Positions 519-25,890 of a stretch of 26,802 nucleotides of DNA are shown in pieces. Source of the DNA: an uncultured Thermotogae bacterium (GTDB lineage: Bacteria; Bipolaricaulota; Bipolaricaulia; UBA7950; UBA9294); contig CAZILO010000001.1 in assembly GCA_964540085.1 (NCBI GenBank), forward strand, positions 9,470 through 36,271, read 5' to 3'. Under the pieces are notes generated by a model. It ran no database searches. It saw only the letters and a list, made by a program, of their open reading frames with translations, and was not told the DNA's origin. Made by a program: the position numbers and the translations under genes. How positions within the stretch are numbered: position 1 is the first letter of the stretch; each line of letters starts with the position of its first letter.

Positions 519-1376
519 CTATTTTTTGCCATTATCGTTATCGGAGCCATGATGTTTTTTGCCCTTGTTCGGAGGACAGGGATGCGAGTTGGGACCGGGG
601 TGTTCATTGCCGTTATGGCCTACTTTCCCACAGCTTGACGGTGGATGCTGACCCTTGTCCCCGGTAGCTGCGGCTCCATTTGCCGCCTGCCCGGGGGAGG
701 TCCCCTGTGCAATCGACGTTGTCAGTTCATCAAGCGCAGCGAGGATATCATCCGGTGTCGCACCGGTGCGGATAAGGCTGATCACCGTCCTGAGGGCGAT
801 CCCCGCGGGGACACCAGCCTTTATTACCTCACCCACCTTCGTTTGCACAGCCTGCATGTCGTCTTGGCTGTAACTGAACTTGTCGGCTGTTTGTAAGATC
901 GCGGTTTGAATCCCATACTGGCTCATGCCTGATCGCGCCATGGGGATCTTGGCAATGTCCCCGGTCGTGATCGCTGTCTCAAGGTAAGATTGCGCCGCGT
1001 TGAACCCGATGTGGTTGGTAAGCATAAGATCGAGGACAGAGCTGATCGCCTGAGCGGCGAACTTGGCCTGATGTACGTCGGTAATAGACCCCCACAACGC
1101 GATGTCGAGGAGAGCGTCCACGTCCGCGGGAGTCACCACCCCTGCGTCCACTGCTCCGGTAATCGTGACGACGAGCATGAACTGCGCGTTGGGGGGAAGA
1201 AGCGTGGTTCCCGTAACCCGGGTTAACACGCTGTCCAACGTGTATGAACCAGTCTGCGTGTATGAAGCGGTCTGCACGTCTTCTCCGATGGCGACGACCG
1301 CGCTCAGAGAGAGAATAGCGACCATGAAGAACACGATGGCTAACGATTTTGCTGATCTCGGTAGTCCGGCTGTCAT
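519..1376 (-). CDS. Exported hypothetical protein, predicted helical, with a low-complexity G/H/P/N/K-rich C-terminal tail
   Basis: Hydrophobic signal peptide (LAIVFFMVAILSLSAVVA). AAGGAGG SD at 1382-1388 favours the ATG at 1376 over the ORF-track GTG at 1382. Confidence 0.75.
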   Translation of the reverse strand: MTAGLPRSAKSLAIVFFMVAILSLSAVVAIGEDVQTASYTQTGSYTLDSVLTRVTGTTLLPPNAQFMLVVTITGAVDAGVVTPADVDALLDIALWGSITDVHQAKFAAQAISSVLDLMLTNHIGFNAAQSYLETAITTGDIAKIPMARSGMSQYGIQTAILQTADKFSYSQDDMQAVQTKVGEVIKAGVPAGIALRTVISLIRTGATPDDILAALDELTTSIAQGTSPGQAANGAAATGDKGQHPPSSCGKVGHNGNEHPGPNSHPCPPNKGKKHHGSDNDNGKK

Positions 1377-1436
1377 AGGCACCTCCTTTAGACCCGTGAC
1401 TTTGCGCCCCCGACTTTCGTCGGGTTTGCCCTTTCA
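1358..1436 (-). ncRNA. c-di-GMP-I (GEMM-I) riboswitch aptamer overlapping the SD, start codon and first codons
   Basis: Minus strand reads GGGCAAA-CCCGAC-GAAA-GTCGGG-GGCGCAAA-GTC-A-CGG-GTC...GAC-AG-CCG-GAC-TACCG. It has the GNRA-capped P1b, the G20/C44/A47/C92 equivalents and a complementary P2. P1 is weak. Confidence 0.85.
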
Positions 1437-1446
1437 TATTGTTTTT

Positions 1447-3535: not shown

Positions 3536-4069
3536 ATGAAAAGAACGGCGCTGGTATTAATCGTGGTTGTACTGGCTATATCGGCGGTTGTTGTCGCCCA
3601 GCCCGCGTCGCAGCCGGCGAACATTGGGGCGTTAGATCGATACCTGGGAGCTTGGCAATCAAGCGCAGTCATCAATCCCTGTGTATGGGTGCCCAGCGGT
3701 GAACAACAACACACGATCGTCCAAGTCAGTTTGTTCCTTAACAGGAAATTCCTTCAGATGGTGTCTCTCAGCGAACACCAGGAGAGCCTGAGCCTTCTCC
3801 GTTATGATTCGCAAAAAGACATATATCAGATGTGGACGTATGATTCTAACGGCAACACGGGGTACTGGACCGGCGTTTGGGACAAAACTGCGCAAACCAT
3901 GACCTGGAAATATGCGTTGACATCAATAGTGGGAATAACGGGAGTAATAGTGGATCGATTCACCAGCGCGGATGCGTACAACACCGTGATGATAATGACC
4001 GATAGCCGTGGCAACCTGTTGTTGGACGTACAATCAGAGAGCGTCCGCAAAAAGCCATTTCATGGTTAG
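3536..4069 (+). CDS. Exported beta-rich protein, DUF1579-like
   Basis: Signal peptide, then GAW...FL...YDSQKDIYQMWTYDSNG..GYWTGVWD, which resembles DUF1579. Confidence 0.6.
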   Translation: MKRTALVLIVVVLAISAVVVAQPASQPANIGALDRYLGAWQSSAVINPCVWVPSGEQQHTIVQVSLFLNRKFLQMVSLSEHQESLSLLRYDSQKDIYQMWTYDSNGNTGYWTGVWDKTAQTMTWKYALTSIVGITGVIVDRFTSADAYNTVMIMTDSRGNLLLDVQSESVRKKPFHG

Positions 4070-16321: not shown

Positions 16322-16942
16322 TCAATCCTTTCTCCCCACGATGATCCCGATCGTTCCATTGAACAGGGAATATCGCGATTCGATCCGGGGAATGCGCGGA
16401 ACTACCGCGTCGATTCCGCCGGCGCGTACGAACGCACGAAAGTTGTGAAAATGATCGCGCCCCGCCATCCGTTCGATCGCGTGAATAAATCCCCATGTGA
16501 AGTTCCAGCGCCGCGGGCGCGAGTACTCAGCGACAATTACAATCCCGCCCGGTCGCACTACCCGCACGGCCTCAGCAACCATCCGTTCACGGTCAGGAGC
16601 GGGATGTTCGTGCAGACATAAACTGAGAATCACCGCCGAGAAACTGCTATCGGGAAACGGCAATGAAAAGCCGGAACCAAGGACATAGTGAATTTCGGGC
16701 GGTCCGAGGCGACGAGCAACGGAAATCATCTCCGGGGACAAGTCGATTCCCGTGGTAACAATCCCAGCGGCATGCAGACTGCGGCACTGGGCACCGGTAG
16801 CACAGGCGATGTCGATGGCATCAGCTATCCGATGTGCCGTGCACAGCGACGTTATCTCGCGGCGAAGTGCGCGCAGAAGCGGATCGATCATGCGCGCGTA
16901 TATACGCGCACTGCCGCTGCCGTAGGTGGATGCTGGGGTCAC
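16322..16942 (-). CDS. Class I SAM-dependent methyltransferase
   Basis: AIDIACATG motif I, GIDLSPEMI, LPFPDSSFSAV, EAVRVVRPGG. GTG start overlaps the upstream stop (GTGA). Confidence 0.85.
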   Translation of the reverse strand: MTPASTYGSGSARIYARMIDPLLRALRREITSLCTAHRIADAIDIACATGAQCRSLHAAGIVTTGIDLSPEMISVARRLGPPEIHYVLGSGFSLPFPDSSFSAVILSLCLHEHPAPDRERMVAEAVRVVRPGGIVIVAEYSRPRRWNFTWGFIHAIERMAGRDHFHNFRAFVRAGGIDAVVPRIPRIESRYSLFNGTIGIIVGRKD

Positions 16943-19848
16943 TTTACCGTGATCGTATCCGTGAGCGAGTCGGTATTACCATCGTTGTCGGTGACGGTCA
17001 ACGTGACCTTGTATGTCCCGGCTGCAGTAAAGGTGTGGGTGACTTTTACTCCGGTGGCGTCCGGCTTGCCATCCCCGTTGAAGTCCCACGCGTACGCCAC
17101 GATCTTGCCGTCAAAGTCGAACGAATTGGACGCGTCGAACATCATGAGCTGACCGGCGGTGGGATGCTGCGGGGCATAGGTAAAGTCGGCGGTTGGCGGC
17201 TGGAACGTGATCACTACCTGCTTCGGCTTGATGTACCCCCCGATTGCAACGTGCGGTGCGGTCTGCGGAGTGATAGTAACCGTCACCTGCTTAGGAGTGG
17301 TGAACGTGAACCGCGGCGGCAGGGTGGTATCGTCGACGGACACCGTGTACTTCCCCGGTGTCAGGTTAGTAAACTCGAACCGGCCGGTGGCGGCGGTATC
17401 GGTATCGGCGGTGCTGCCCGCACCGGACAGGAGAATCCGCACTTGAGCAACCCCACCTTCACCGGGATCGTAGACCCCGTTCTTGTTAGTGTCATCGAAC
17501 AGGATCCCATCGAGATGAGCAATCGGAGCGAGCGGAACGTTGATTCCCGCAGTAATCCCGGGTTTAACGGTCACCTGCGGCGATGACGCTGGCGGCGCGG
17601 TATCGGACGGAAGATGGCTAATGGTAATGGTGTACGTCCCCGGTGCGCACGGCGGGAATCGGTAGTATCCGCTCGCATCGGTGGACACTTCGGTAATGCG
17701 GGTGGACACGATCGCGCCGGCAACCGGGCGATCGCCCGGATCGTAACGACCATTCCCGTTGACATCGATGAACACGCGCCCGCTGATCCTGCCCTTGGTA
17801 ACAAGGAACGGGACGGGCAAATCAAACCTCCATGTAAATGTCGTCCCCCACTGGAACGTGGCCGCACTCGCATCGTTTCTGTCCCATCCGATAGTCCCAG
17901 TCAGCCCGAGGGTGAGGGCATCGAGAAGCTGAACATTGCCAGTTACCGAAACGCTGAATGTGTCCGTACTGTTCGTCAGATTGATCTGGGCGGAGTGAAT
18001 GGAATTTTTCGCGTGAAACCGCAGGGAAACGTTGTCGCTGGTGGACAGGGTCGCCCCGGTGATGAGGTTGAGATTCTTGGTTTGGGCGAGGTTTAAGTAC
18101 AACGAGAATGCATCAGTCGATAACCCAATTCCCTCATTAAACGTCAGCGTCCGGTAGGAGGTAGCAGCGGCATGGTCGAGCTGATCGGACAGCTTACCAG
18201 AAAATGAGTACGGGAATGCGCCGGTCGTGTTTTGCAGTCCAACCGCGAGGAGACGGTCAATCTCGTTCTGTGCGGTGAGATCCGGCGCCCGTTTCCACGT
18301 GAACTCGCACGTACCGGTAATGGTGGGCCCATCTTTAAGCGGGGTGGACTGAAAGTTAAGCCCAAGGTCGTCAGTGATCGTTGTTGGCACGAGCGGGTCA
18401 CCGACGACGTTGTCCCACGTATGACTGAGCGACGCACGCAGGGAGAGATCGGTGGTGGTCAACCGTTGCGACACGGAGATGCCGGCCTGATCAGCACGGT
18501 CACCTGGGAAGTACGTGCCCACTGAGAATACCTCCCCGCTCAGGAAGTACGGAGTGGTATCGATTTTGGTGTTGAAGTACAGCGCGCGACTGGTGCGCCC
18601 ATCGTTGACCCCCAACGCCCCCTCGCCGCGGATCGTCCAGTCGGTGAGCGGTTCTGCCGCTGCCGACAGGCTCCACGCTGCAGCCCGAGTCGCCTGGTCC
18701 CGCTTGTCAAGGTAACCGATCCCGAAGTTGGCCTGCTGGGGACCGATGGATAGCAACCCGCCGAATCGCGTCTGTGCATCCTCACCACCGCCGATGAGAC
18801 GGATTCGATAGTTGTCGGCGTCGATGGTTACGCTTCCGCCGCGGCCGTATACGCTTAACAGGTCGGTGAGGCGAAGAAAGGTATCTCCAACCACGTACGT
18901 GGCCGGCGTCTTCCGGTATGTGAGGGTAAACGAACTCACTGTGACCGCTCCCGGGCCAAACAGCGGCCCGAGGTGCAACGTGGATGAGAAATACCCGGCG
19001 TACACACTGCCAGCGAGGGAAAAATACAAGTCGCTGCTGACGGCGTTGGTAAACAAGTTATGGTTAAATGAAAACTGCACTTGTGCTGACAGCACGTCGA
19101 GCAACGTCCCGCCCACTGCCTCGGGCGGGGGCGGCAGGATGGTGGTGAACCATACCTGCTCATCCTTGACCCCAGAATAGAGGGTGGAGTGGACGGACAC
19201 AGTGAGGAGATCTCGCCCTGGAGCGGCATCGGTGGGGACGGCGACGGTGATCGTTACCGTGCGACTTTCCTGGGGCGTGAGGCTGATTTGATCCGCGGAG
19301 ACGGTCACCGGAAATTGATGTGCCGACTGCGCGCTGATTCGGAGCGTATCCTGCGCATTCCCCTGATTGACGATCGTCACCGCGTACGCCGCTTTACCTC
19401 CGGGAGGAACGCTCTTTCCCTCGGGAGGGATGATCACTACCTTATTGACCGGCTTCACCTTCACTTGTGCGCTCGCACTCTGGTTGATTGCCGGATTGGT
19501 TGCAGACACGGCGTGTACGGTAATCGTGTACGTTTTCGCCGGCGCTCCCGCGGGAACGGTGATCGTGATGAACAGGGTTCCCTCTTCGCCCGGTTTGAGC
19601 GCAATATTTTGGGGGGCACCGAGTAAACTCCATCCGTTCGGGGTGTCGTAACTCAGATTAAACGTATCCGCGGCTGCTTCGCTGTTAGTCACTGCGAACA
19701 CGTGTGTAACAAACTCTCCGGGCGCCACCGTCTTAAGTCCGGACAGGACGTGCACTTCCACGCCAGCGCCAAGGCAGACCAGATTTACCAGAAGGACGAT
19801 GCCTCCCCATATCAATGCGGCTTTCAGCCCGAGCTTAACCGTGTCCAT
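16939..19848 (-). CDS. Large exported multidomain protein: two Ig-like domains, a central beta-strand-rich region (possible barrel/usher-like), two SdrD-B/CnaB-like domains and a C-terminal PKD domain
   Basis: Signal peptide; VTN...ADTFNL and VNQGNAQDTL Ig-like repeats; GRVFIDVNGNGRYDPGD and GILFDDTNKNGVYDPGE SdrD-B-like motifs; PKD (YAWDFNGDG, HTFTAAGTYKVTLTVTDNDG). The barrel assignment is inference. The start could be 19860. Confidence 0.7.
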   Translation of the reverse strand: MDTVKLGLKAALIWGGIVLLVNLVCLGAGVEVHVLSGLKTVAPGEFVTHVFAVTNSEAAADTFNLSYDTPNGWSLLGAPQNIALKPGEEGTLFITITVPAGAPAKTYTITVHAVSATNPAINQSASAQVKVKPVNKVVIIPPEGKSVPPGGKAAYAVTIVNQGNAQDTLRISAQSAHQFPVTVSADQISLTPQESRTVTITVAVPTDAAPGRDLLTVSVHSTLYSGVKDEQVWFTTILPPPPEAVGGTLLDVLSAQVQFSFNHNLFTNAVSSDLYFSLAGSVYAGYFSSTLHLGPLFGPGAVTVSSFTLTYRKTPATYVVGDTFLRLTDLLSVYGRGGSVTIDADNYRIRLIGGGEDAQTRFGGLLSIGPQQANFGIGYLDKRDQATRAAAWSLSAAAEPLTDWTIRGEGALGVNDGRTSRALYFNTKIDTTPYFLSGEVFSVGTYFPGDRADQAGISVSQRLTTTDLSLRASLSHTWDNVVGDPLVPTTITDDLGLNFQSTPLKDGPTITGTCEFTWKRAPDLTAQNEIDRLLAVGLQNTTGAFPYSFSGKLSDQLDHAAATSYRTLTFNEGIGLSTDAFSLYLNLAQTKNLNLITGATLSTSDNVSLRFHAKNSIHSAQINLTNSTDTFSVSVTGNVQLLDALTLGLTGTIGWDRNDASAATFQWGTTFTWRFDLPVPFLVTKGRISGRVFIDVNGNGRYDPGDRPVAGAIVSTRITEVSTDASGYYRFPPCAPGTYTITISHLPSDTAPPASSPQVTVKPGITAGINVPLAPIAHLDGILFDDTNKNGVYDPGEGGVAQVRILLSGAGSTADTDTAATGRFEFTNLTPGKYTVSVDDTTLPPRFTFTTPKQVTVTITPQTAPHVAIGGYIKPKQVVITFQPPTADFTYAPQHPTAGQLMMFDASNSFDFDGKIVAYAWDFNGDGKPDATGVKVTHTFTAAGTYKVTLTVTDNDGNTDSLTDTITVK

Positions 19849-19940
19849 ATCGTACACCACAGTAGACGATACGGACGCACGAAGAAAGGACCAATAAAAG
19901 CGGGCAACTGGACGTTTGTCGCTCCTGAGGGTGATATCCG

Positions 19941-21098
19941 TTACTTCACGCGGAACGCACGTTGTCCGCCGACCTCGGTGGCGCCGCCGTAGTCGATCGC
20001 GGCGCGGGCGAGATAAATCCCAGGCGGCAGCGGCTTACTGGATGTATCCTTCACGGTGACAACAGCGGTTGCGCCGGGCAAAACAGGAAACTGCTCAATC
20101 GGAATCTTCCGCATCGTCTCACCCCGTTGGGAGATGATCGTGATCGACCCCGTCGGTCGCAGTTGGACGTTACCCGTGTTTTCAAACGTAACAGTAAACG
20201 TAAGTGGATCAAGAGCCGCCACGCGCACGTCCGTAACCCGCCCTGATTTGATCTCGGTGCCGGTGATGGTAACGTACACTTTTATTCCGAACTCCTCCTT
20301 CGCTGCAATGACAACCCCATTGTGCTGACCAATTATCCTGGGAAGACCATCGACCATGATTGCAGCCCAGTACATCCCGCTGACGCCGGTACGGGGAACG
20401 TGCACCGTAAACGACACCCGCTGCCGTTTACCAGGATCGATGGTGAATTTCTGCGGGGTGACAGTAATCCAGTCTCCGTCGGAACGGGCAACGGTGGTGA
20501 ACTCCCCTCCGGCGGCGGCCACCGATTCGACCGTGACATGGCGGGAGAACACCTCATCAATGCGCATGCCGGTAACCGCTTTTAGGACATGGACAGTTAG
20601 CTGCACGCGTTGGGCACCGGGAACGGTTGGGGATGGTGTAATCGCACGGGTGATCTCCACCGGGCCCGCCGTGGCGACGGATGCGGTGGAACCGGTCCCC
20701 GCTAGCGTGGACGGACCGGCGATTTTACCGTACGCCGCCGGAGAGCCGGTGACGTAGCTACCAGTAATTGTAACCCCGTTAAACGGCGGCAGCACCCGGT
20801 ACGTAATCGTGAATACATCCCCGGGCGCGAACTGGCGAGGAAACAGCCAATATGCATCGTTCAGCGTGAAGAAGTACGTCTTTCTCTCGGGAGGAAAACG
20901 GACCCAGTCGTTCAGATAGACAGTGATTTCCTGCGCCCGTGACTCATCGTTTATTACCAGAAACGAATAGCTCGACGTGCTGCCCGCAGCGAGATGAAGG
21001 TCAAACTCGAATGGCAAAACCTGCAACGCCGCTGCGGATAAAGAAACGCCGATAATTGCCCCAATAATTAATCCAGTTACGATAGTCGTCCGCTGCAT
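19941..21098 (-). CDS. Exported pilus chaperone-like protein (PapD-like / DUF916-DUF3324 WxL-interacting-like)
   Basis: Signal peptide; WITVTPQKFTIDPGKRQRVSFTVHVP..GMYWAAIMV, FENTGNVQLRPTGSITI and LPPGIYLARAAIDYG. GGAGG SD supports ATG 21098. Confidence 0.65.
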   Translation of the reverse strand: MQRTTIVTGLIIGAIIGVSLSAAALQVLPFEFDLHLAAGSTSSYSFLVINDESRAQEITVYLNDWVRFPPERKTYFFTLNDAYWLFPRQFAPGDVFTITYRVLPPFNGVTITGSYVTGSPAAYGKIAGPSTLAGTGSTASVATAGPVEITRAITPSPTVPGAQRVQLTVHVLKAVTGMRIDEVFSRHVTVESVAAAGGEFTTVARSDGDWITVTPQKFTIDPGKRQRVSFTVHVPRTGVSGMYWAAIMVDGLPRIIGQHNGVVIAAKEEFGIKVYVTITGTEIKSGRVTDVRVAALDPLTFTVTFENTGNVQLRPTGSITIISQRGETMRKIPIEQFPVLPGATAVVTVKDTSSKPLPPGIYLARAAIDYGGATEVGGQRAFRVK

Positions 21099-21133
21099 TG
21101 TCGCCTCCATTCGGGTAGTGGATATACTTAAGT

Positions 21134-22094
21134 CTATCTCGTAGTTACAGTGTATTGCAACGTTATCCCGTACGTGCCCGCTCGATCAGCAATGTCGGGT
21201 TGATAGCGGTATGAAATGCGGTGCGTCTCCCCGCCGGGATCGGTGCGCGATACGAGTGTCACCGGCGTCGTGTTCAATCCGGCCGCCGAGTGAAACGCGC
21301 CATCGTCGACACGCCAGTAGAAGTTAGTGAGGAGATCGCCGCTGAATCCGGGCGGAGTCGTTATTGCTGTTGCCTCCAGTTGCAGCTGCCAACCAGACGG
21401 CGGGTTCCCGATCACAAACACGGGGTTGTCATCGCTCTCCAGCGGGGTAAGTTTCCCGGTACGCACATCGTACAACGGCCCCTGTGACCGTGCCCAGATC
21501 GATTGCTCCGTGAGCGGCAACGACGATCCACGCCTGCACCGTCCAAGTGATAGTGACGTCTTGGCTGACCGTATACAGCAGGTAACCGAAGATCGAAGCC
21601 GCCACCTGATACCGCAACGTGATGGAATACGTACCGGGGAGGTCGGCGGCACTCGGCAAGTAACGATAGTCGATGGTCTCCGCATCCGTTCCGGTGGCAT
21701 TACTCCCGTTAACGACGGTCATCGGCGTTTGCACTCCCGGGAACACGGTATAGCTCGGTTGATCGCCACCGCGCCAGTAAAACCGGGTCAAATCAACTCC
21801 CGGTGAGGTAGCCACGATTTCCACCGTAAGCGTCCAATCCAGGGTTAACCAACCATTACGAGTTACGTTGACCGCGTTGTTGTCCGCCTCAATCGGAACG
21901 AACTGACCGTCACCGGTGGGAGTGGGATCGTGATACACGGATGCGTTAACCGTTCCCAAGTCAACATCGGAATGAACAGTAAGACAAGTATAGTCACCGA
22001 ACCGACCATCGCATGTCGTACCTGCAGCGGCGATAAATACCGCCACGGTAACCGCAATAGTCGCGATAAGCAACATGGAACCGCGTTTTATCAT
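21134..22094 (-). pseudogene. Two-domain pilin/adhesin-like exported protein split by a single-base frameshift
   Basis: ORFs 21429-22097 and 21134-21700 join into one frame (IDLGTVTG|PLYDVRTG) if one G is removed from the minus-strand GGGG at 21479-21482. The joined segment aligns without gaps to paralog VDLGTIDGGLYDPATN. Confidence 0.75.
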
Positions 22095-22096
22095 CA

Positions 22097-22133
22097 AAAG
22101 TAAACTCGAGGGCGGCCGTGACGACCGCCCTCG
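22097..22133 (-). terminator. Probable intrinsic terminator after the 22149-22670 subunit gene
   Basis: Minus-strand stem CGAGGGCGGTCG / CGGCCGCCCTCG followed by AGTTTACTTTT. Confidence 0.6.
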
Positions 22134-22148
22134 CTGAGGCGCAACTAG

Positions 22149-22670
22149 TTACGGTGACGTCAACGTGTACGTCACGGTGACGGCGTAGGCACCGGGAGCA
22201 TCATCCCAGCTTGGGATGTACTCGTACTGGATATCGCTGATGTGAGTGAGTCCCGGCCCGCCGGTGCTCAACGTTTGATCGCTGGCAAGCGGGGTAAATG
22301 AAGACAAAGCGCCTCCCTTCACCTCGAACCGCGACAGATCAGCAGTATTCGTGCCCGTGCTTGCGGCATGCAGAGTGAGCGTATAGTTGGTGTTGCTGAT
22401 TACGTACGCATTTTTGGCCTTCGAGGTAAGCGGCGTCCACGTATTGGTAGCGGGATCGTACAAGCCTCCATCAATCGTTCCAAGGTCAACGCTCATATCA
22501 GCAGTCGGGATGTAGAGCACGATCCAGTTCTGCACACTCCACATTACCACCGGCAACAAACTCCCCGACAGCGGGGTTGCTCCACTGTCCGTTGCCGTAT
22601 CCGCCATCACACCTACTGTAACTAACATCAACCCGCCAATTACAGCGAGCAAGAAGAATAGCCTCTTCAT
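22149..22670 (-). CDS. Exported pilin/WxL-like subunit (candidate major subunit)
   Basis: Signal peptide; MWSVQNWIVL..VDLGTI, SNTNYTLTLHA and C-terminal DDAPGAYAVTVTYTLT shared with neighbours. AGGAGG SD supports ATG 22670. Confidence 0.7.
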   Translation of the reverse strand: MKRLFFLLAVIGGLMLVTVGVMADTATDSGATPLSGSLLPVVMWSVQNWIVLYIPTADMSVDLGTIDGGLYDPATNTWTPLTSKAKNAYVISNTNYTLTLHAASTGTNTADLSRFEVKGGALSSFTPLASDQTLSTGGPGLTHISDIQYEYIPSWDDAPGAYAVTVTYTLTSP

Positions 22671-22675
22671 CAAAA

Positions 22676-22728
22676 GCACCTCCTAATGGTTTAATTTTCG
22701 AGCACCTAGCAGCTCTGCCACCATTAGG
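22676..22728. repeat. 53-bp translation-initiation cassette, near-identical (49/53) to 23511-23563
   Basis: gcacctcctaatggtttaattttcgagcacctagcagctctgccaccattagg versus gcacctcctaatggtttgattttcgagcacctagcgactcggccaccattagg. Confidence 0.9.
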
Positions 22729-22868
22729 TACGCCACGGTAGCCCGACAATCTCACGTGAGATTCGCGGCTTTGCGCCCCAGGATCGCTCCTGGTTTGCCT
22801 TTTTCGTCGTCACCCATAGGCCGTAGCTTTGCGCCCCACCCTTTCGGAATGGTTTGCCCTTCAGTGCT
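22701..22868 (-). ncRNA. Outer c-di-GMP-I aptamer of nested pair B
   Basis: 5' half AGCACTGAAGGGCAAACCATTCC-GAAA-GGGTGGGGCGCAAAGCTACGGCC; 3' half GGTGGCAGAGCTGCTAGGTGCT lies about 100 nt downstream. P1 AGCACT/GGTGCT is slightly out of the canonical register. Confidence 0.7.
22735..22807 (-). ncRNA. Inner, complete c-di-GMP-I aptamer of nested pair B
   Basis: ACG-AAAAA-GGCAAA-CCAGGA-GCGA-TCCTGG-GGCGCAAA-GCCGCG-AATCTC-ACGT-GAGATT-GTCGGGC-TAC-CGT; canonical P1 register with G20. Confidence 0.88.
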
Positions 22869-22950
22869 TATTGAGATGAGGCTGATACCAAACTCAACTT
22901 ATATTGCGGTCTGTTTCTAATAACCACCTCCTTATAATTGTTACAAGGAT

Positions 22951-22979
22951 ATTGTACCGCTTAACTAATTGTTCGTCAA
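22951..22979 (-). promoter_or_regulatory. Sigma70-type promoter for the 22149-22670 gene and downstream operon
   Basis: TTGACG (22979-22974), 17-nt spacer, TACAAT (22956-22951). Confidence 0.75.
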
Positions 22980-23026
22980 GTGGTACAAATCTCCCTTCTG
23001 GTGAACCGAGACGGATAGAATCCGCA

Positions 23027-23052
23027 GGGCCGACAGGAATCCCCGCCGGCCC
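23027..23052 (-). terminator. GC-rich hairpin 3' of the 23074-23505 gene (terminator or mRNA stabiliser)
   Basis: GGGCCGGCGGG-GATT-CCTGTCGGCCC; two G-U pairs work only on the minus strand. The U-tract is poor. Confidence 0.45.
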
Positions 23053-23073
23053 CTTCGCTCTTCATCCGTTAGC

Positions 23074-23505
23074 CTACTTGGTAGTGACGGTGTAAGTAAC
23101 GATCGTGGCATAAGTACCGGGAGCCATCGCCCGCAGGTTAAATAAGGTGTAGTTTACGCCGACCTTAGCATCGTTCTTCCCATTGTACGTGGACAGACCA
23201 ACTTTCAGGTGGTCACTGCCGTTACCGGACAGGGAAACGGTAAGGGACCAACTGGTATTGCTGTACACGAACAGGGTGTTTGCGTTTTCCTTGGCAACTT
23301 CGTCGACACCTGCCGGAATTGCGCCAAAGTCGAATGCGGTGTCTGCGATCTTGAGCTCGACGAACCCTTGGATCGTCCAGCTGATCTTGTCCTCTACGGA
23401 GACAGAATTGCTATGATTATGACCATTGGCGAACCCGGCGAGCCCGATCATCGCCACTGCCAAACCCAGCACCAACAGACCTACGATAAGTTTATTCATC
23501 CTCAT
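23074..23505 (-). CDS. Exported pilin/WxL-like subunit
   Basis: Signal peptide; ISWTIQGFVELKI..FDFGAI, SNTSWSLTVS and C-terminal MAPGTYATIVTYTVTTK. AGGAGG SD supports ATG 23505. Confidence 0.7.
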   Translation of the reverse strand: MRMNKLIVGLLVLGLAVAMIGLAGFANGHNHSNSVSVEDKISWTIQGFVELKIADTAFDFGAIPAGVDEVAKENANTLFVYSNTSWSLTVSLSGNGSDHLKVGLSTYNGKNDAKVGVNYTLFNLRAMAPGTYATIVTYTVTTK

Positions 23506-23535
23506 TGAAAGCACCTCCTAATGGTTTGATTTTCG

Positions 23536-23723
23536 AGCACCTAGCGACTCGGCCACCATTAGGCAAGCTGCGGCAACCCGGCTGTCTGCTGTGAGACCCG
23601 TGGCTTTGCGTCCCGAGGTCACCCTCGGTTTGCCCTTATCACAACACCCCACACGGGGCTTTGCCTAGAAGGTCCGTAGCTTTGCGTCCCGCCCTTTCGA
23701 ACGGTTTGCCTTTTGTAGGTGCT
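23536..23723 (-). ncRNA. Outer c-di-GMP-I aptamer of nested pair C
   Basis: P1 AGCACCTA/TAGGTGCT (8 bp), J1/2 CAAAA then G20, P1b CCGTTC-GAAA-GGGCGG, GACGCAAA, P2 GCT-A-CGG-ACC / GGT-GG-CCG-AGT, then CGC containing the C92 equivalent. Confidence 0.85.
23567..23645 (-). ncRNA. Inner, complete c-di-GMP-I aptamer of nested pair C
   Basis: GTTGTG-ATAAG-GGCAAA-CCGAGG-GTGA-CCTCGG-GACGCAAA-GCCACGGGTCT...AGAC-AG-CCGGGT-TGC-CGCAGC; near-consensus. Confidence 0.92.
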
Positions 23724-23814
23724 TCGCTGAGGACGTAGTGCATTGCAGCAATTGAGCTGCAATCTTTAAAACAATGTGAATTTATACAGAGGGGAACAAG
23801 TAACCGAAAACTTT

Positions 23815-23954
23815 CGGCAGCCCGGCGATCTCCCGTTGATTTAGCATCCGTTATGTCCTTGAGTTAATAACCTCTAAGAACACTTAAGAACACTCGCAAA
23901 TCTGAGAGACCCGTGGCTTTGCGTCCCCTCCTTACGAAGGGTTTGCTTTTTTCG
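23815..23954 (-). ncRNA. GEMM-I aptamer with A at position 20 (candidate c-AMP-GMP variant) and a 73-nt P2 extension
   Basis: CG-AAAAA-A-GCAAA-CCCTTC-GTAA-GGAGGG-GACGCAAA-GCCACGGGTCTC...GAGAT-CG-CCGGGC-TGC-CG; position 20 corresponds to base 23947. Confidence 0.82.
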
Positions 23955-23989
23955 CTGTCTCGGTTCACTTGTCAATGACCATCGCTCTT

Positions 23990-23995
23990 ATTATA
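23990..23995 (-). promoter_or_regulatory. -10 element (TATAAT) at the head of the three-aptamer leader
   Basis: Perfect TATAAT 35 nt upstream of the A20 aptamer; -35 unclear. Confidence 0.55.
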
Positions 23996-24043
23996 CCGCG
24001 TAGCGGATGGTTTTAGACATATTGACCGAGTGAACAAATTTAA

Positions 24044-24697
24044 TCACTTATTTGCCGGAGGAAACAAGTTTTTGGCGAGAAGGCTCTGCAATGAAGAGAG
24101 TTTTTCCAGTGCGGAGGCAATGCGGATGCGATACTGAATTGGAAACGGATCCGGCCGCTTGCTCCTGATCTTGGCCAGGTCTATCTTGGGAGTAGGGTCG
24201 GTGGCACGTTTCTCCGCGCTCAGGGAGACGTAATTAATCGCTTCGCGCGCCTTGAAAATTTCGGTAATTCCCTCCTCAGTAATGTTGACCGCATCGGCAA
24301 GTTCGCTTAGTGTGGGGAGATGGCCGGTTTCCCGAAGTAGGCGCGCCTCGGCCATCTCGAGTTGGCGGTTCAAATCCTGCAAAAACCGGGGAATGTATGC
24401 CTGATGCGCGTGATCGCGGATGTACTGTCGGATCTCGCCGGTGATCAAGTTCTTCGCGTACTCGGAGAATTCCTTACCCCGCGCGAGGTGGATGTTATAC
24501 ACCGCGTTCAATAGCCCGAGATAGCCGGCATGGAACAGCTCATCATGGGTAAATCCACTGTGGGCAAACGCGCTCGCGATTACAGTCTCCACCCACTGCC
24601 TCCCCCGCGCCAGCAGTTCATTGCGGGCGGATTCATCGCCGGCTGTCACCCGGGCGAGGAGCTCGTTGAGAGAAGCATCATCGTTGTTCATAGTCAC
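24044..24697 (-). CDS. Sigma-70 family factor (SigB/SigF/SigG-like) with regions 2 and 3 but lacking the region-4.2 HTH
   Basis: GDESARNEL, DELFHAGYLGLLNAV, FSEYA...ITGEIRQYIRD, IPR, LPTLSELADAVNI and VSL. The protein ends soon after RIASALEKL. The start is GTG 24697 or ATG 24691. Confidence 0.8.
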   Translation of the reverse strand: MTMNNDDASLNELLARVTAGDESARNELLARGRQWVETVIASAFAHSGFTHDELFHAGYLGLLNAVYNIHLARGKEFSEYAKNLITGEIRQYIRDHAHQAYIPRFLQDLNRQLEMAEARLLRETGHLPTLSELADAVNITEEGITEIFKAREAINYVSLSAEKRATDPTPKIDLAKIRSKRPDPFPIQYRIRIASALEKLSSLQSLLAKNLFPPANK

Positions 24698-24699
24698 TG

Positions 24700-25890
24700 T
24701 TAAAATGCTAGTTCAAATCCGAAACTCGCACTGGTAATCCCGGTAAAGTCGAACTGTACCGTTGTGGACAGCGTGATGCCGGAGAATTTAACACGGGCGG
24801 TGATCCGTTCGCCGGTAAATCCGGTCAGATCGAACGACGTGTAGCTGGTGAACGTAACCGGATCAATTGTCGCCTCAATTCCGAACAACTGCTGCGAGAA
24901 CATGAAATTACCGTCGAAGTCGGTCTCGGAGATGGCGGTGAATCCCTTACACACATACGATAACGCGAACCGCTGCCCGGAAAACACGACGGGAATCGGC
25001 AACGGCGGTGTGGGCGCGGAGAAACTGGTCTCGGACGTAAACCGCACCGGATCGATCTGAATATCGAGGATAAAATCAAGCCCACTCAACGAGAATGAAT
25101 GATCAACCGTAACGGAAGTGAGGAACGCGATATTTGGCTCGGTGAATTGGTACCCAAGCTCGGCAATCTCCTGGGCAAATCCGGACGTATCAAGCCACGT
25201 AGTACTGCTCGCCAGCAACCCACATGTATCGACCTCGAACCGCACTAACTCCTGCTCAAAGTAAAATCCGGGAACGATCGTTACCCGCCACACCGGCGGT
25301 GGCCCGGACAGTGATCCAAGCTGATTAAACAGGTACAGCAATTTATCGGTAAATGGCGCGCTTACCCCGCCCAGGGTGTTTACGAGGTCGGTTGCGCCGA
25401 ACCCAGTAACGGAGGTGATAGAAAATCCGCTCACTACACCACTTTTGAGCGTGAGGACCGCTCCCATGCTGTACGTCGGTGTCTGAACGGTTCCGATGTC
25501 CGCGAGGATCAGGTCAAGCCCGAGCTCGACTCCCACGATTTGTCCGGCGACGGAAAAGTCATTCCAATTGAACCGAGGATTGAACAGAATGTCGTTGCCG
25601 ATCGTAAATGCGCCCAGGTTGAGTGAGCAATCAACCCCGAGCGATTGAAATCCCGAAAGGTCAAACGCGGTCTGTGTGCTGACGGAGAATCCGGCAATCT
25701 GGAGTGCGGCAGAGATGTTCGTTGTAAGGTTGTAAGCGGTCGGTGGAATCGGAGCAAACGTAAATTCAACACCTACTTTTCCGGAGAACGTGTCGCTGCC
25801 ACAGTTCGCGCATTCTCCGAACGCAAGTGTTCCTCCAACTAGAAGTAAAACAAAAAGCACCACGATTATTCGATAATTCATCCGTCGCAT
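24700..25890 (-). CDS. Exported beta-strand-rich protein, probable outer-membrane/envelope protein
   Basis: Signal peptide, alternating hydrophobic strands, internal repeats (IDPVRFTSETSF / IDPVTFTSYTSF) and a C-terminal Phe; GGAGGAGG SD. Confidence 0.65.
   Translation of the reverse strand: MRRMNYRIIVVLFVLLLVGGTLAFGECANCGSDTFSGKVGVEFTFAPIPPTAYNLTTNISAALQIAGFSVSTQTAFDLSGFQSLGVDCSLNLGAFTIGNDILFNPRFNWNDFSVAGQIVGVELGLDLILADIGTVQTPTYSMGAVLTLKSGVVSGFSITSVTGFGATDLVNTLGGVSAPFTDKLLYLFNQLGSLSGPPPVWRVTIVPGFYFEQELVRFEVDTCGLLASSTTWLDTSGFAQEIAELGYQFTEPNIAFLTSVTVDHSFSLSGLDFILDIQIDPVRFTSETSFSAPTPPLPIPVVFSGQRFALSYVCKGFTAISETDFDGNFMFSQQLFGIEATIDPVTFTSYTSFDLTGFTGERITARVKFSGITLSTTVQFDFTGITSASFGFELAF

Follow-up and report, generated by a model that had tools for sequence, protein, structure and literature searches.

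One aptamer inside another: a probable double c-di-GMP riboswitch upstream of a predicted pilin-like gene in Bipolaricaulota

Introduction

The stretch of DNA analyzed in the present study, hereafter the window, comprises 26,802 nucleotides (nt) of an uncultured Thermotogae bacterium placed by GTDB in the Bipolaricaulota (assembly GCA_964540085.1, contig CAZILO010000001.1, positions 9,470 to 36,271 of the forward strand). It carries on its minus strand two paralogous genes for small secreted proteins, here called B and C, and upstream of each of them a nested unit, in which one aptamer of the c-di-GMP-I class, whose ligand is cyclic di-guanosine monophosphate (c-di-GMP), lies within another. 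The unit ahead of gene C, which was pointed out in an earlier note on this DNA, is the main subject of this study, and the one ahead of gene B serves for comparison. To our knowledge, the multi-aptamer riboswitches described so far have their aptamers side by side.

Materials and Methods

Bipolaricaulota and Acetothermia were represented solely by metagenome-assembled genomes and contigs. Relatives were collected with a pattern scan for an aptamer core that is followed too closely by a second aptamer, which yielded 77 loci from one-genome-per-species contigs and 89 metagenome stretches, and after filtering 99 distinct nested units were left. The genomic ones came nearly all from assemblies of Candidatus Bipolaricaulota or Acetothermia and in a few cases from bins with other labels; one locus (L048, WFSM01000177.1) is close to identical with the window. 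Genome-scan matches outside loci of the Bipolaricaulota type were rejected as chance matches in coding DNA or as singlets with a fortuitous CGCAAAGC upstream.

A covariance model with 171 positions and 50 pairs, which represents the entire nest, was built from ten relatives with the window excluded. Over 171 loci and the window it gave 140 matches of at least 150 nt, a count that includes duplicates from overlapping records, and the alignment used for covariation consists of 125 distinct rows fitted to this model. Since the alignment was fitted in this way, an alignment-free duplex test was added; the rank of the cognate partner was dropped as its statistic because GC-rich strands pair with everything, and a permutation sum was used instead. 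Pocket positions 20, 47 and 92 follow the numbering of Vc2, and their assignment to alignment columns is our own reading of the Rfam consensus.

Results

Nested architecture

Positions 22701-22868 of the minus strand hold one complete c-di-GMP-I aptamer inside the distal part of paired region 3 (P3) of a second one, joined to it by an enclosing helix of 6 base pairs (bp), and the two limits correspond precisely to both strands of outer P1 (Table 1). Every part of the nest that the earlier note had read from these letters was found again. The inner aptamer, set by the note at 22735-22807, is placed by Rfam at 22733-22808, where its match to RF03167 reaches 63.4 bits and thus passes the gathering score, which is 59. 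About 90 nt separate the two halves of the outer unit (5', about 60 nt; 3', about 30 nt), and because of this interruption no full Rfam alignment of it is obtained; its 5' half alone gives a partial match (22818-22867, 23.6 bits, E 0.0078), which spans P2 and the CGCAAAG core. In both units alike the pocket consists of G, A and C. The enclosing helix can be extended by a U-A and a G.U pair to UGGGU(G)ACG / CGUACCUA, and the pairing GCT-A-CG-GCC / GGT-GG-C(A)G-AGC, listed in the note as outer P2, is present as well and corresponds to outer P3.

The nested copy upstream of gene B (copy B) has the topology of the one upstream of gene C (copy C), except that a further hairpin separates its enclosing helix from inner P1, and the two share 83% column identity when aligned. 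Their enclosing helices had been described as different in sequence with pairing retained, which is borne out in full: from B to C there are two double changes (C-G to U-A and A-U to C-G), one single change (A-U to G.U) and an extra bulged G.

Covariation and conservation in relatives

In the window the covariance model recovered copy C at 22701-22870 with 160.6 bits (E 6e-41) and copy B with 106 bits. Over the 125 rows, standard pairs occupy 93.9% of the cells, compared with 83.3% after shuffling, double changes occur at 43 of the 50 pairs, and the covariation score of 0.311 (0.148 shuffled) was reached by none of 500 shuffles; when partners were slid by 1-3 columns, pairing fell to 30-41% and the score to 0.068 or less. 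Double changes affect all six pairs of outer P1 (e.g., UA:71/CG:27), all eight of outer P2, with helices 2-3 paired at 97.6-100%, five of nine in outer P3 (89-96% paired) and 18 of 21 in inner P1, P2 and P3, and the three-way junction P1/P2/P3 of the outer unit is thereby supported by covariation.

The enclosing helix, on which the nesting depends, is doubly changed at each of its six pairs. Its three proximal pairs are formed in 96.9% of cases (GC:85/AU:22, CG:63/UA:28/AU:6), and its distal half in 70%, because this part varies in length and is poorly aligned by the model. In the alignment-free test the enclosing strands of one and the same unit pair at a mean of -9.2 kcal/mol, compared with -6.8 for swapped strands, and the cognate sum was reached in 0 of 5000 permutations. 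More than ten unrelated sequences serve as enclosing helix, for instance GGUAUG/CGUACC, UAGAC/GUCUA, GGCUGCGA/UUGCAGCC and CUAAGAG/CUCUUAG. The note had argued that nesting is selected and not an accident of insertion, and had named lack of covariation in this helix as a finding that would speak against it; the covariation, the variety of sequences and the preference for the cognate strand in all 5000 permutations uphold its argument. The nested architecture is in the sequence far beyond chance.

Pocket and tetraloops of the two units

Among the approximately 113 rows that cover the outer aptamer, its pocket is conserved at 85-100%. Position 20 is G in 96 and A in 17 outer units and G in 122 and A in three inner ones, position 47 is A throughout (115/115 outer, 125/125 inner), and position 92 is C in 110 of 113 outer and 122 of 124 inner units. 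The P2 loop of the outer unit is GAAA in 105 of 111 units; that of the inner unit is GCGA, GUGA, GCAA or GUAA in 109 of 111, so that the loop sets of the two are almost never shared, and such distinct tetraloops would stop tertiary contacts from crossing between the units. In outer P3 the 5' strand may lack one nucleotide (CGGACC to CGGCC), which in 33 of 33 cases goes along with a change of GGCCG to GGCAG or GGACG on the opposite side, and the internal loop of this helix is conserved on its 3' side (UAAU/UGAU) and variable on its 5' side.

That pocket, GAAA loop and a compensated indel in P3 are all kept argues against a dead scaffold; both units look like working aptamers, and binding of two ligands is predicted. 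The suspicion voiced in the note that outer P1 is less canonical, and the outer unit therefore weak or mainly a structural relay, is not supported, in view of the double changes throughout outer P1 and the same kept pocket and loop.

Fifteen nested units, among them L004:2667-2857, L026:5455-5697, L043:1345-1595 and L046:4546-4726, combine A at position 20 of the outer unit with G at position 20 of the inner one. An A at this position is the signature associated with sensing of cyclic adenosine monophosphate-guanosine monophosphate (c-AMP-GMP, cGAMP).

Retention of the outer half

Variable loss of the outer half in relatives, the second finding by which the note had been prepared to give up its view, was not encountered. 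Across the loci collected, a full-length nest lies directly upstream of all 53 homologues of protein B and of 28 of the 29 homologues of protein C for which a leader exists and the sequence extends far enough upstream; taken together, 81 of 82 such genes have the nest. Five contigs were retrieved solely through distant protein members (42-46% identity), and all five show the full nest upstream. A leader is missing in six distant paralogues, which are downstream genes of operons. The downstream protein family is small and falls into 22 clusters, all of hypothetical proteins, and the three with a source name are Acetothermia/Bipolaricaulota or unassigned.

The sole exception (L151:3680-3860, plus strand, gene at 3848) is a singlet c-di-GMP-I aptamer (Rfam 55.2 bits) without outer aptamer. 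It precedes a paralogue with 51% identity to gene C, and the nest may have arisen from such a form or have been reduced to it. An enclosing-like helix, GGGAGA/UCUCC, is present with CCUAAUGGU and ACCAUUAGGAGG after it, and because these elements are kept, the 3' strand of the enclosing helix is regarded as the switching strand.

Expression platform

Each nest is followed by a single R2-type platform. No terminator-like site was detected between nest and AUG, and neither a terminator-like site nor a Shine-Dalgarno sequence (SD) between the inner and the outer aptamer, so that the unit does not qualify as a tandem with independent platforms. The minimum-free-energy (MFE) fold of the single leader sequence is not the nest but a state with three long-range helices, named Y, Z and W, and the 5' strand of helix Y overlaps the 3' strand of the enclosing helix, the internal loop and distal P3. 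These conserved alternative pairings, together with the lack of a terminator, are those of a translational riboswitch that works by sequestration of the SD, and its direction would be ON.

For helix Y, pairing in the MAFFT alignment amounts to 91.0% (88.8% shuffled), with a score of 0.205 (0.176 shuffled) that none of 500 shuffles reached; in a model-based alignment of 112 platforms 94.1% are paired, with AU:63/GC:8/UA:4/CG:1 at one pair. Switches between subtypes are visible by eye, as in CCUAUUGGUGG with CCACCAAUAGG and CUUAGUGGUG with CAUCACUAGG. Helix W covaries strongly (AUCCUCA/UGAGGAU, CUCAUGGGA/UUCCAUGAG, UUUCUUCAUGGAA/UUUUAUGAAGAAA), and its cognate duplexes have a mean of -12.9 kcal/mol versus -9.85 for non-cognate ones, a value as low as which was found in 0 of 5000 permutations.

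In a nearest-neighbor ensemble model, pre-organizing the inner aptamer costs 4.6 kcal/mol and the outer one 17-19, and when both are folded the total falls short of the sum by 3.6 kcal/mol. A coupling of this size fits a relay in which the inner aptamer, transcribed first, would bind first and lower the barrier of the outer one.

From the promoter-like site in Table 1 the transcript is predicted to start about 75 nt upstream of copy C, and the leaders of L078-L082 show similar TTGACA/TATAAT sites in the same place. An SD-like element, AGGAGGUGG, was noticed at approximately 22919-22927 (minus strand), about 50 nt upstream of copy C, which could pair with CCUC just upstream of P1; the leaders of L078-L082 contain GGAGGUG elements that resemble it.

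Table 1. Positions of the features of copy C, its expression platform and the neighboring aptamers in the window.
Feature	Positions	Strand	Sequence and partner	Basis or remark
Outer P1, 5' strand	22868-22863	minus	AGCACU with AGGUGCU 22707-22701	6 bp, one of them U.G
Outer junction G (position-20 equivalent)	22858	minus	G	pocket conservation
Outer P2 hairpin	22857-22831	minus	GAAA tetraloop	partial Rfam match; covariation
Outer A47 equivalent	22830	minus	A	pocket conservation
Outer P3, 5' strand	22828-22819	minus	AGCU-A-CG-GCC with GGU-GG-C(A)G-AGCU 22722-22711	
Internal loop and enclosing helix, 5' strand	22818-22808	minus	UAU, then (UG)GGU(G)ACG	strand reading, covariation
Enclosing helix	22814-22808 with 22732-22727	minus	GGU(G)ACG with CGUACC	leads directly into inner P1
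Inner aptamer	22733-22808	minus	P1 ACG 22807-22805 with CGU 22737-22735; P2 loop GCGA	P3 present
Internal loop, 3' side	22726-22723	minus	UAAU	strand reading
Outer C92 equivalent	22709	minus	C, after the G 3' of the outer P3 3' strand	pocket conservation
Outer P1, 3' strand	22708-22701	minus	UAGGUGCU	near copy of the SD region (SD mimic)
Helix Y	22728-22720 with 22690-22682	minus	CCUAAUGGU with pre-SD ACCAUUAGG	MFE fold, covariation; runs into AGGAGG
Helix Z	22869-22863 with 22680-22674	minus	AAGCACU with GGUGCUU	MFE fold, complementarity
Helix W	22883-22871 with 22673-22660	minus	AGCCUCAUCUCAA with UUGAUGAAGAGGCU	covers spacer, AUG and codons 2-4
SD	22684-22679	minus	AGGAGG	expression platform
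Start codon	22670-22668	minus	AUG	gene C
Gene C	22149-22670	minus		173 amino acids, signal peptide, predicted beta-sandwich
Promoter-like site	22951-22979	minus	TTGACG, 17 nt, TACAAT	consensus match alone
Nested copy B	23536-23725	minus		leader of paralogous gene B (23074-23505)
Copy B, inner aptamer	23568-23643	minus		Rfam 69.6 bits
Copy B, outer 5' half	23672-23720	minus		partial match, Rfam 38 bits
Aptamer A	23812-23956	minus		Rfam 63.8 bits; insertion of about 70 nt in P3 loop

Regulated genes and neighborhood

The product of gene B has 143 amino acids and a signal peptide and is a distant paralogue of protein C (27% identity, E 8e-7); neither protein matched an entry of Pfam or NCBIfam. 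The AlphaFold model of protein C is a beta-sandwich (pLDDT 77), whose best matches in the PDB by Foldseek, donor-strand-exchange pilins and archaeal bundling pili, are weak (E about 1e-3, TM about 0.4), and on this structural likeness protein C is putatively a pilin-like fiber subunit. In the neighborhood a SigB/F/G-like sigma factor, a 389-amino-acid protein with weak matches to cell-surface repeats and a 973-amino-acid surface protein of the SdrD/PKD type are encoded.

The order of the locus (window 16939-25890, minus strand) is conserved in L018, L073, L048, L004, L026 and L142: a singlet aptamer, a nested unit, gene B, a nested unit and gene C are followed by further paralogues and large surface proteins, with the SigB/F/G-like sigma factor upstream of them. 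In some relatives the combination of nested riboswitch and gene occurs three times in a row.

Other c-di-GMP-I aptamers in the window

Since aptamer A precedes copy B, the leader of gene B contains three aptamers. In aptamer A the pocket position 20 is occupied by A instead of G (AAAAAGCAAACC), and a terminator-like hairpin (23818-23803) overlaps the 3' strand of its P1. Its P3 insertion is resembled by insertions of 60-100 nt with GGGUUCAU/GAGUUGAAC-like repeats in the inner P3 loops of L009, L026, L030, L043, L067, L069, L097 and L100, which may form a long irregular hairpin or serve as a binding site. A canonical singlet c-di-GMP-I riboswitch (1357-1440, minus strand, Rfam 79.8 bits) is situated at a distance from the nested units.

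Discussion

A nested unit with one platform

We consider it probable that the leader of gene C is a nested double riboswitch, in which two aptamers share one translational ON platform that governs a predicted pilin-like fiber subunit; what the sequences show is the architecture with its conservation and covariation, the conserved pockets and the covarying alternative pairings, while it is inferred that two ligands bind, that they turn the switch ON and that the two sites are coupled. A translational ON switch is the best reading because folding of the nest uses up exactly those strands that bury the SD. Without ligand, CCUAAUGGU would pair with ACCAUUAGG upstream of and into the SD (helix Y), and the 5' strand of outer P1 would form helix Z with GGUGCUU and its 5' flank helix W with the spacer, the AUG and the first codons, so that these three helices would keep the ribosome-binding site buried. 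The inner aptamer, transcribed first and cheap to fold, would then be locked by c-di-GMP at its P1 and, by extension, at the enclosing helix; the locked enclosing helix would favor closure of outer P3 and P1, which a second ligand would stabilize, and with both anti-SD strands withdrawn gene C would be translated.

A tentative proposal, which could well go either way, is that the unit acts as a natural aptamer-in-aptamer relay, where binding in the inner aptamer gates folding and binding of the outer one through the enclosing helix and two ligands converge on one ribosome-binding site; in the 15 relatives with A20 in the outer unit the same scaffold may also form a nested gate of cGAMP AND c-di-GMP.

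Points against and other explanations

Several observations weigh against a reading with two functional aptamers, and with one exception they are also those on which a different explanation would build, namely that the inner aptamer is the sole sensor of c-di-GMP and the outer unit a degenerate scaffold or clamp that links it to the SD. The canonical 11-nt tetraloop receptor is not conserved in outer P3 among the 111 units examined, and the outer unit as one contiguous match stays below the gathering score of Rfam. Outer P3 of copy C is irregular in that an A bulges out and one of the base pairs of copy B is missing; at the P3 base of B-type relatives the closing A-U is replaced by an A.C mismatch (pair 55-393). 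The scaffold explanation can further point to the L151 singlet, in which inner aptamer, enclosing helix and CCUAAUGGU platform occur without an outer aptamer. The exception concerns the statistics, as the shuffle and permutation controls ignore phylogeny. A pure scaffold, however, would need neither a pocket nor a GAAA loop nor a covarying P2, and the outer units retain the first two at the frequencies given above, while their P2, which lies outside the platform pairings, covaries at all six stem pairs; for this reason the scaffold explanation is regarded as unlikely.

A further group of objections concerns the switch itself. The covariation of helix Y is modest, with double changes at two of nine pairs, and helix W may stay formed alongside the folded nest. 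The modeled folding cost of the outer unit is large. With an equilibrium two-site model the Hill coefficient came out at about 1, and the modeled accessibility of the SD rose from 0.19 to 0.36, with no rise in a construct that begins at the putative transcription start. As far as these models go, the switch may be kinetic, or a simple equilibrium model may be inadequate; given the Hill coefficient and the poor opening of the SD in the full-length leader, digital cooperativity is not claimed.

An OFF switch that depends on ligand, or a device that acts mainly elsewhere than on translation initiation, for instance on the stability of the mRNA or the folding of the leader upstream, would agree with this nearly unchanged SD accessibility, with the presence of SD-like AGGAGGUGG further upstream and with helix W, which buries the AUG, could coexist with a folded nest and is the strongest covarying long-range element. 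Such an output is nevertheless decidedly improbable: the nest consumes CCUAAUGGU and AGCACU, which are the complements of pre-SD and SD, and its folding must hence release the SD; besides, there is no terminator, and c-di-GMP commonly turns on genes for adhesins and fibers, a general knowledge of this messenger into which induction of a surface-fiber gene fits.

Very improbable is a swap of partners resulting in a multi-state switch, either by a hybrid aptamer of outer 5' half and inner 3' half, a pairing that is possible at 87% and was rejected since it scores below every shuffle because changes in the inner strand are uncompensated in the outer one, or by helix X (GCUACGG with CCGUGGC), which appears in RNAalifold on the MAFFT alignment and in the single-sequence MFE fold and reaches 12 bp in one subtype (GCAAAGCUACGG with CCGUAGCUUUGC), but is without covariation (75.7% paired, equal to the shuffle mean, with 140 of 500 shuffles reaching its score) and has a central mismatch in B-type units. 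Helix X may be an OFF-state trap in C-type units. RNAalifold on the plain MAFFT alignment returned helix X and not the enclosing helix, the region of variable length being misaligned, and this result was discarded.

Comparison with known systems

With c-di-GMP-I aptamers (GEMM-I, RF01051/RF03167) both units of the nested riboswitch have in common a junction of three helices, a core of GGCAAACC...CGCAAAG, a pocket of G, A and C and, on P2, a GNRA loop; unlike in GEMM-I, distal P3 of the outer unit has no loop and continues through the enclosing helix into P1 of another aptamer. The parts, c-di-GMP-I aptamers and a platform that sequesters the SD, are ordinary, whereas the topology is not. Tandem arrangements of this class, as Bc3-5 of Bacillus thuringiensis (PMC9481103, PMC4759541), likewise place several aptamers for the same messenger in one leader, often upstream of genes for adhesins or surface proteins, and a sharper or shifted response is expected of them, as it would be here; their aptamers, however, are consecutive, and in the nested unit one lies topologically inside the other with one platform for both. 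In their survey, Sherlock et al. (2022) listed 347 doublet and 12 triplet c-di-GMP-I arrangements and classed tandem c-di-GMP-I as having multiple expression platforms; that text uses 'embedded' once and neither 'nested' nor 'inserted' at all.

The tandem glycine riboswitch resembles the nested unit in having two homologous aptamers for one ligand, a single platform and an expected communication between aptamers, but its aptamers are adjacent and joined by tertiary contacts, whereas coupling here would run along the coaxial stack of outer P3, enclosing helix and inner P1. In the allosteric c-di-GMP-II riboswitch with group I ribozyme of Clostridioides difficile, too, ligand in one module stabilizes a helix of a second module. 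Engineered aptamer-in-aptamer sensors exist, for example with GEMM-I fused into a stem of Spinach, and the enclosing helix would play the role of their 'transducer stem'. Unlike in the ribozyme and the Spinach-type sensors, both modules are natural and of the same aptamer class, and the predicted output is release of the SD. Functionally closest are therefore the tandem glycine riboswitch with one platform and the engineered sensors with grafted aptamers.

A literature search, which included a 2025 survey of contiguous riboswitches and left most subscription journals outside, found no account of natural aptamers, of the c-di-GMP class or otherwise, that are nested or embedded, and an earlier description may exist; within the same bounds no riboswitch studies on Acetothermia or Bipolaricaulota came to light.

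Conclusions

A conserved natural aptamer-in-stem design would represent a new way for RNA to merge two binding events into one output, and the nested unit would be the natural counterpart of engineered 'transducer-stem' sensors. With more than 100 sequence variants and their built-in covariation, it offers material for the study of allosteric communication along a helix. The results also suggest that homology searches miss split outer aptamers, and the counts of c-di-GMP-I aptamers and of 'tandem' arrangements may consequently be incomplete. For the Bipolaricaulota and Acetothermia, the nested riboswitch would connect the synthesis of one family of secreted fiber-like proteins with c-di-GMP.

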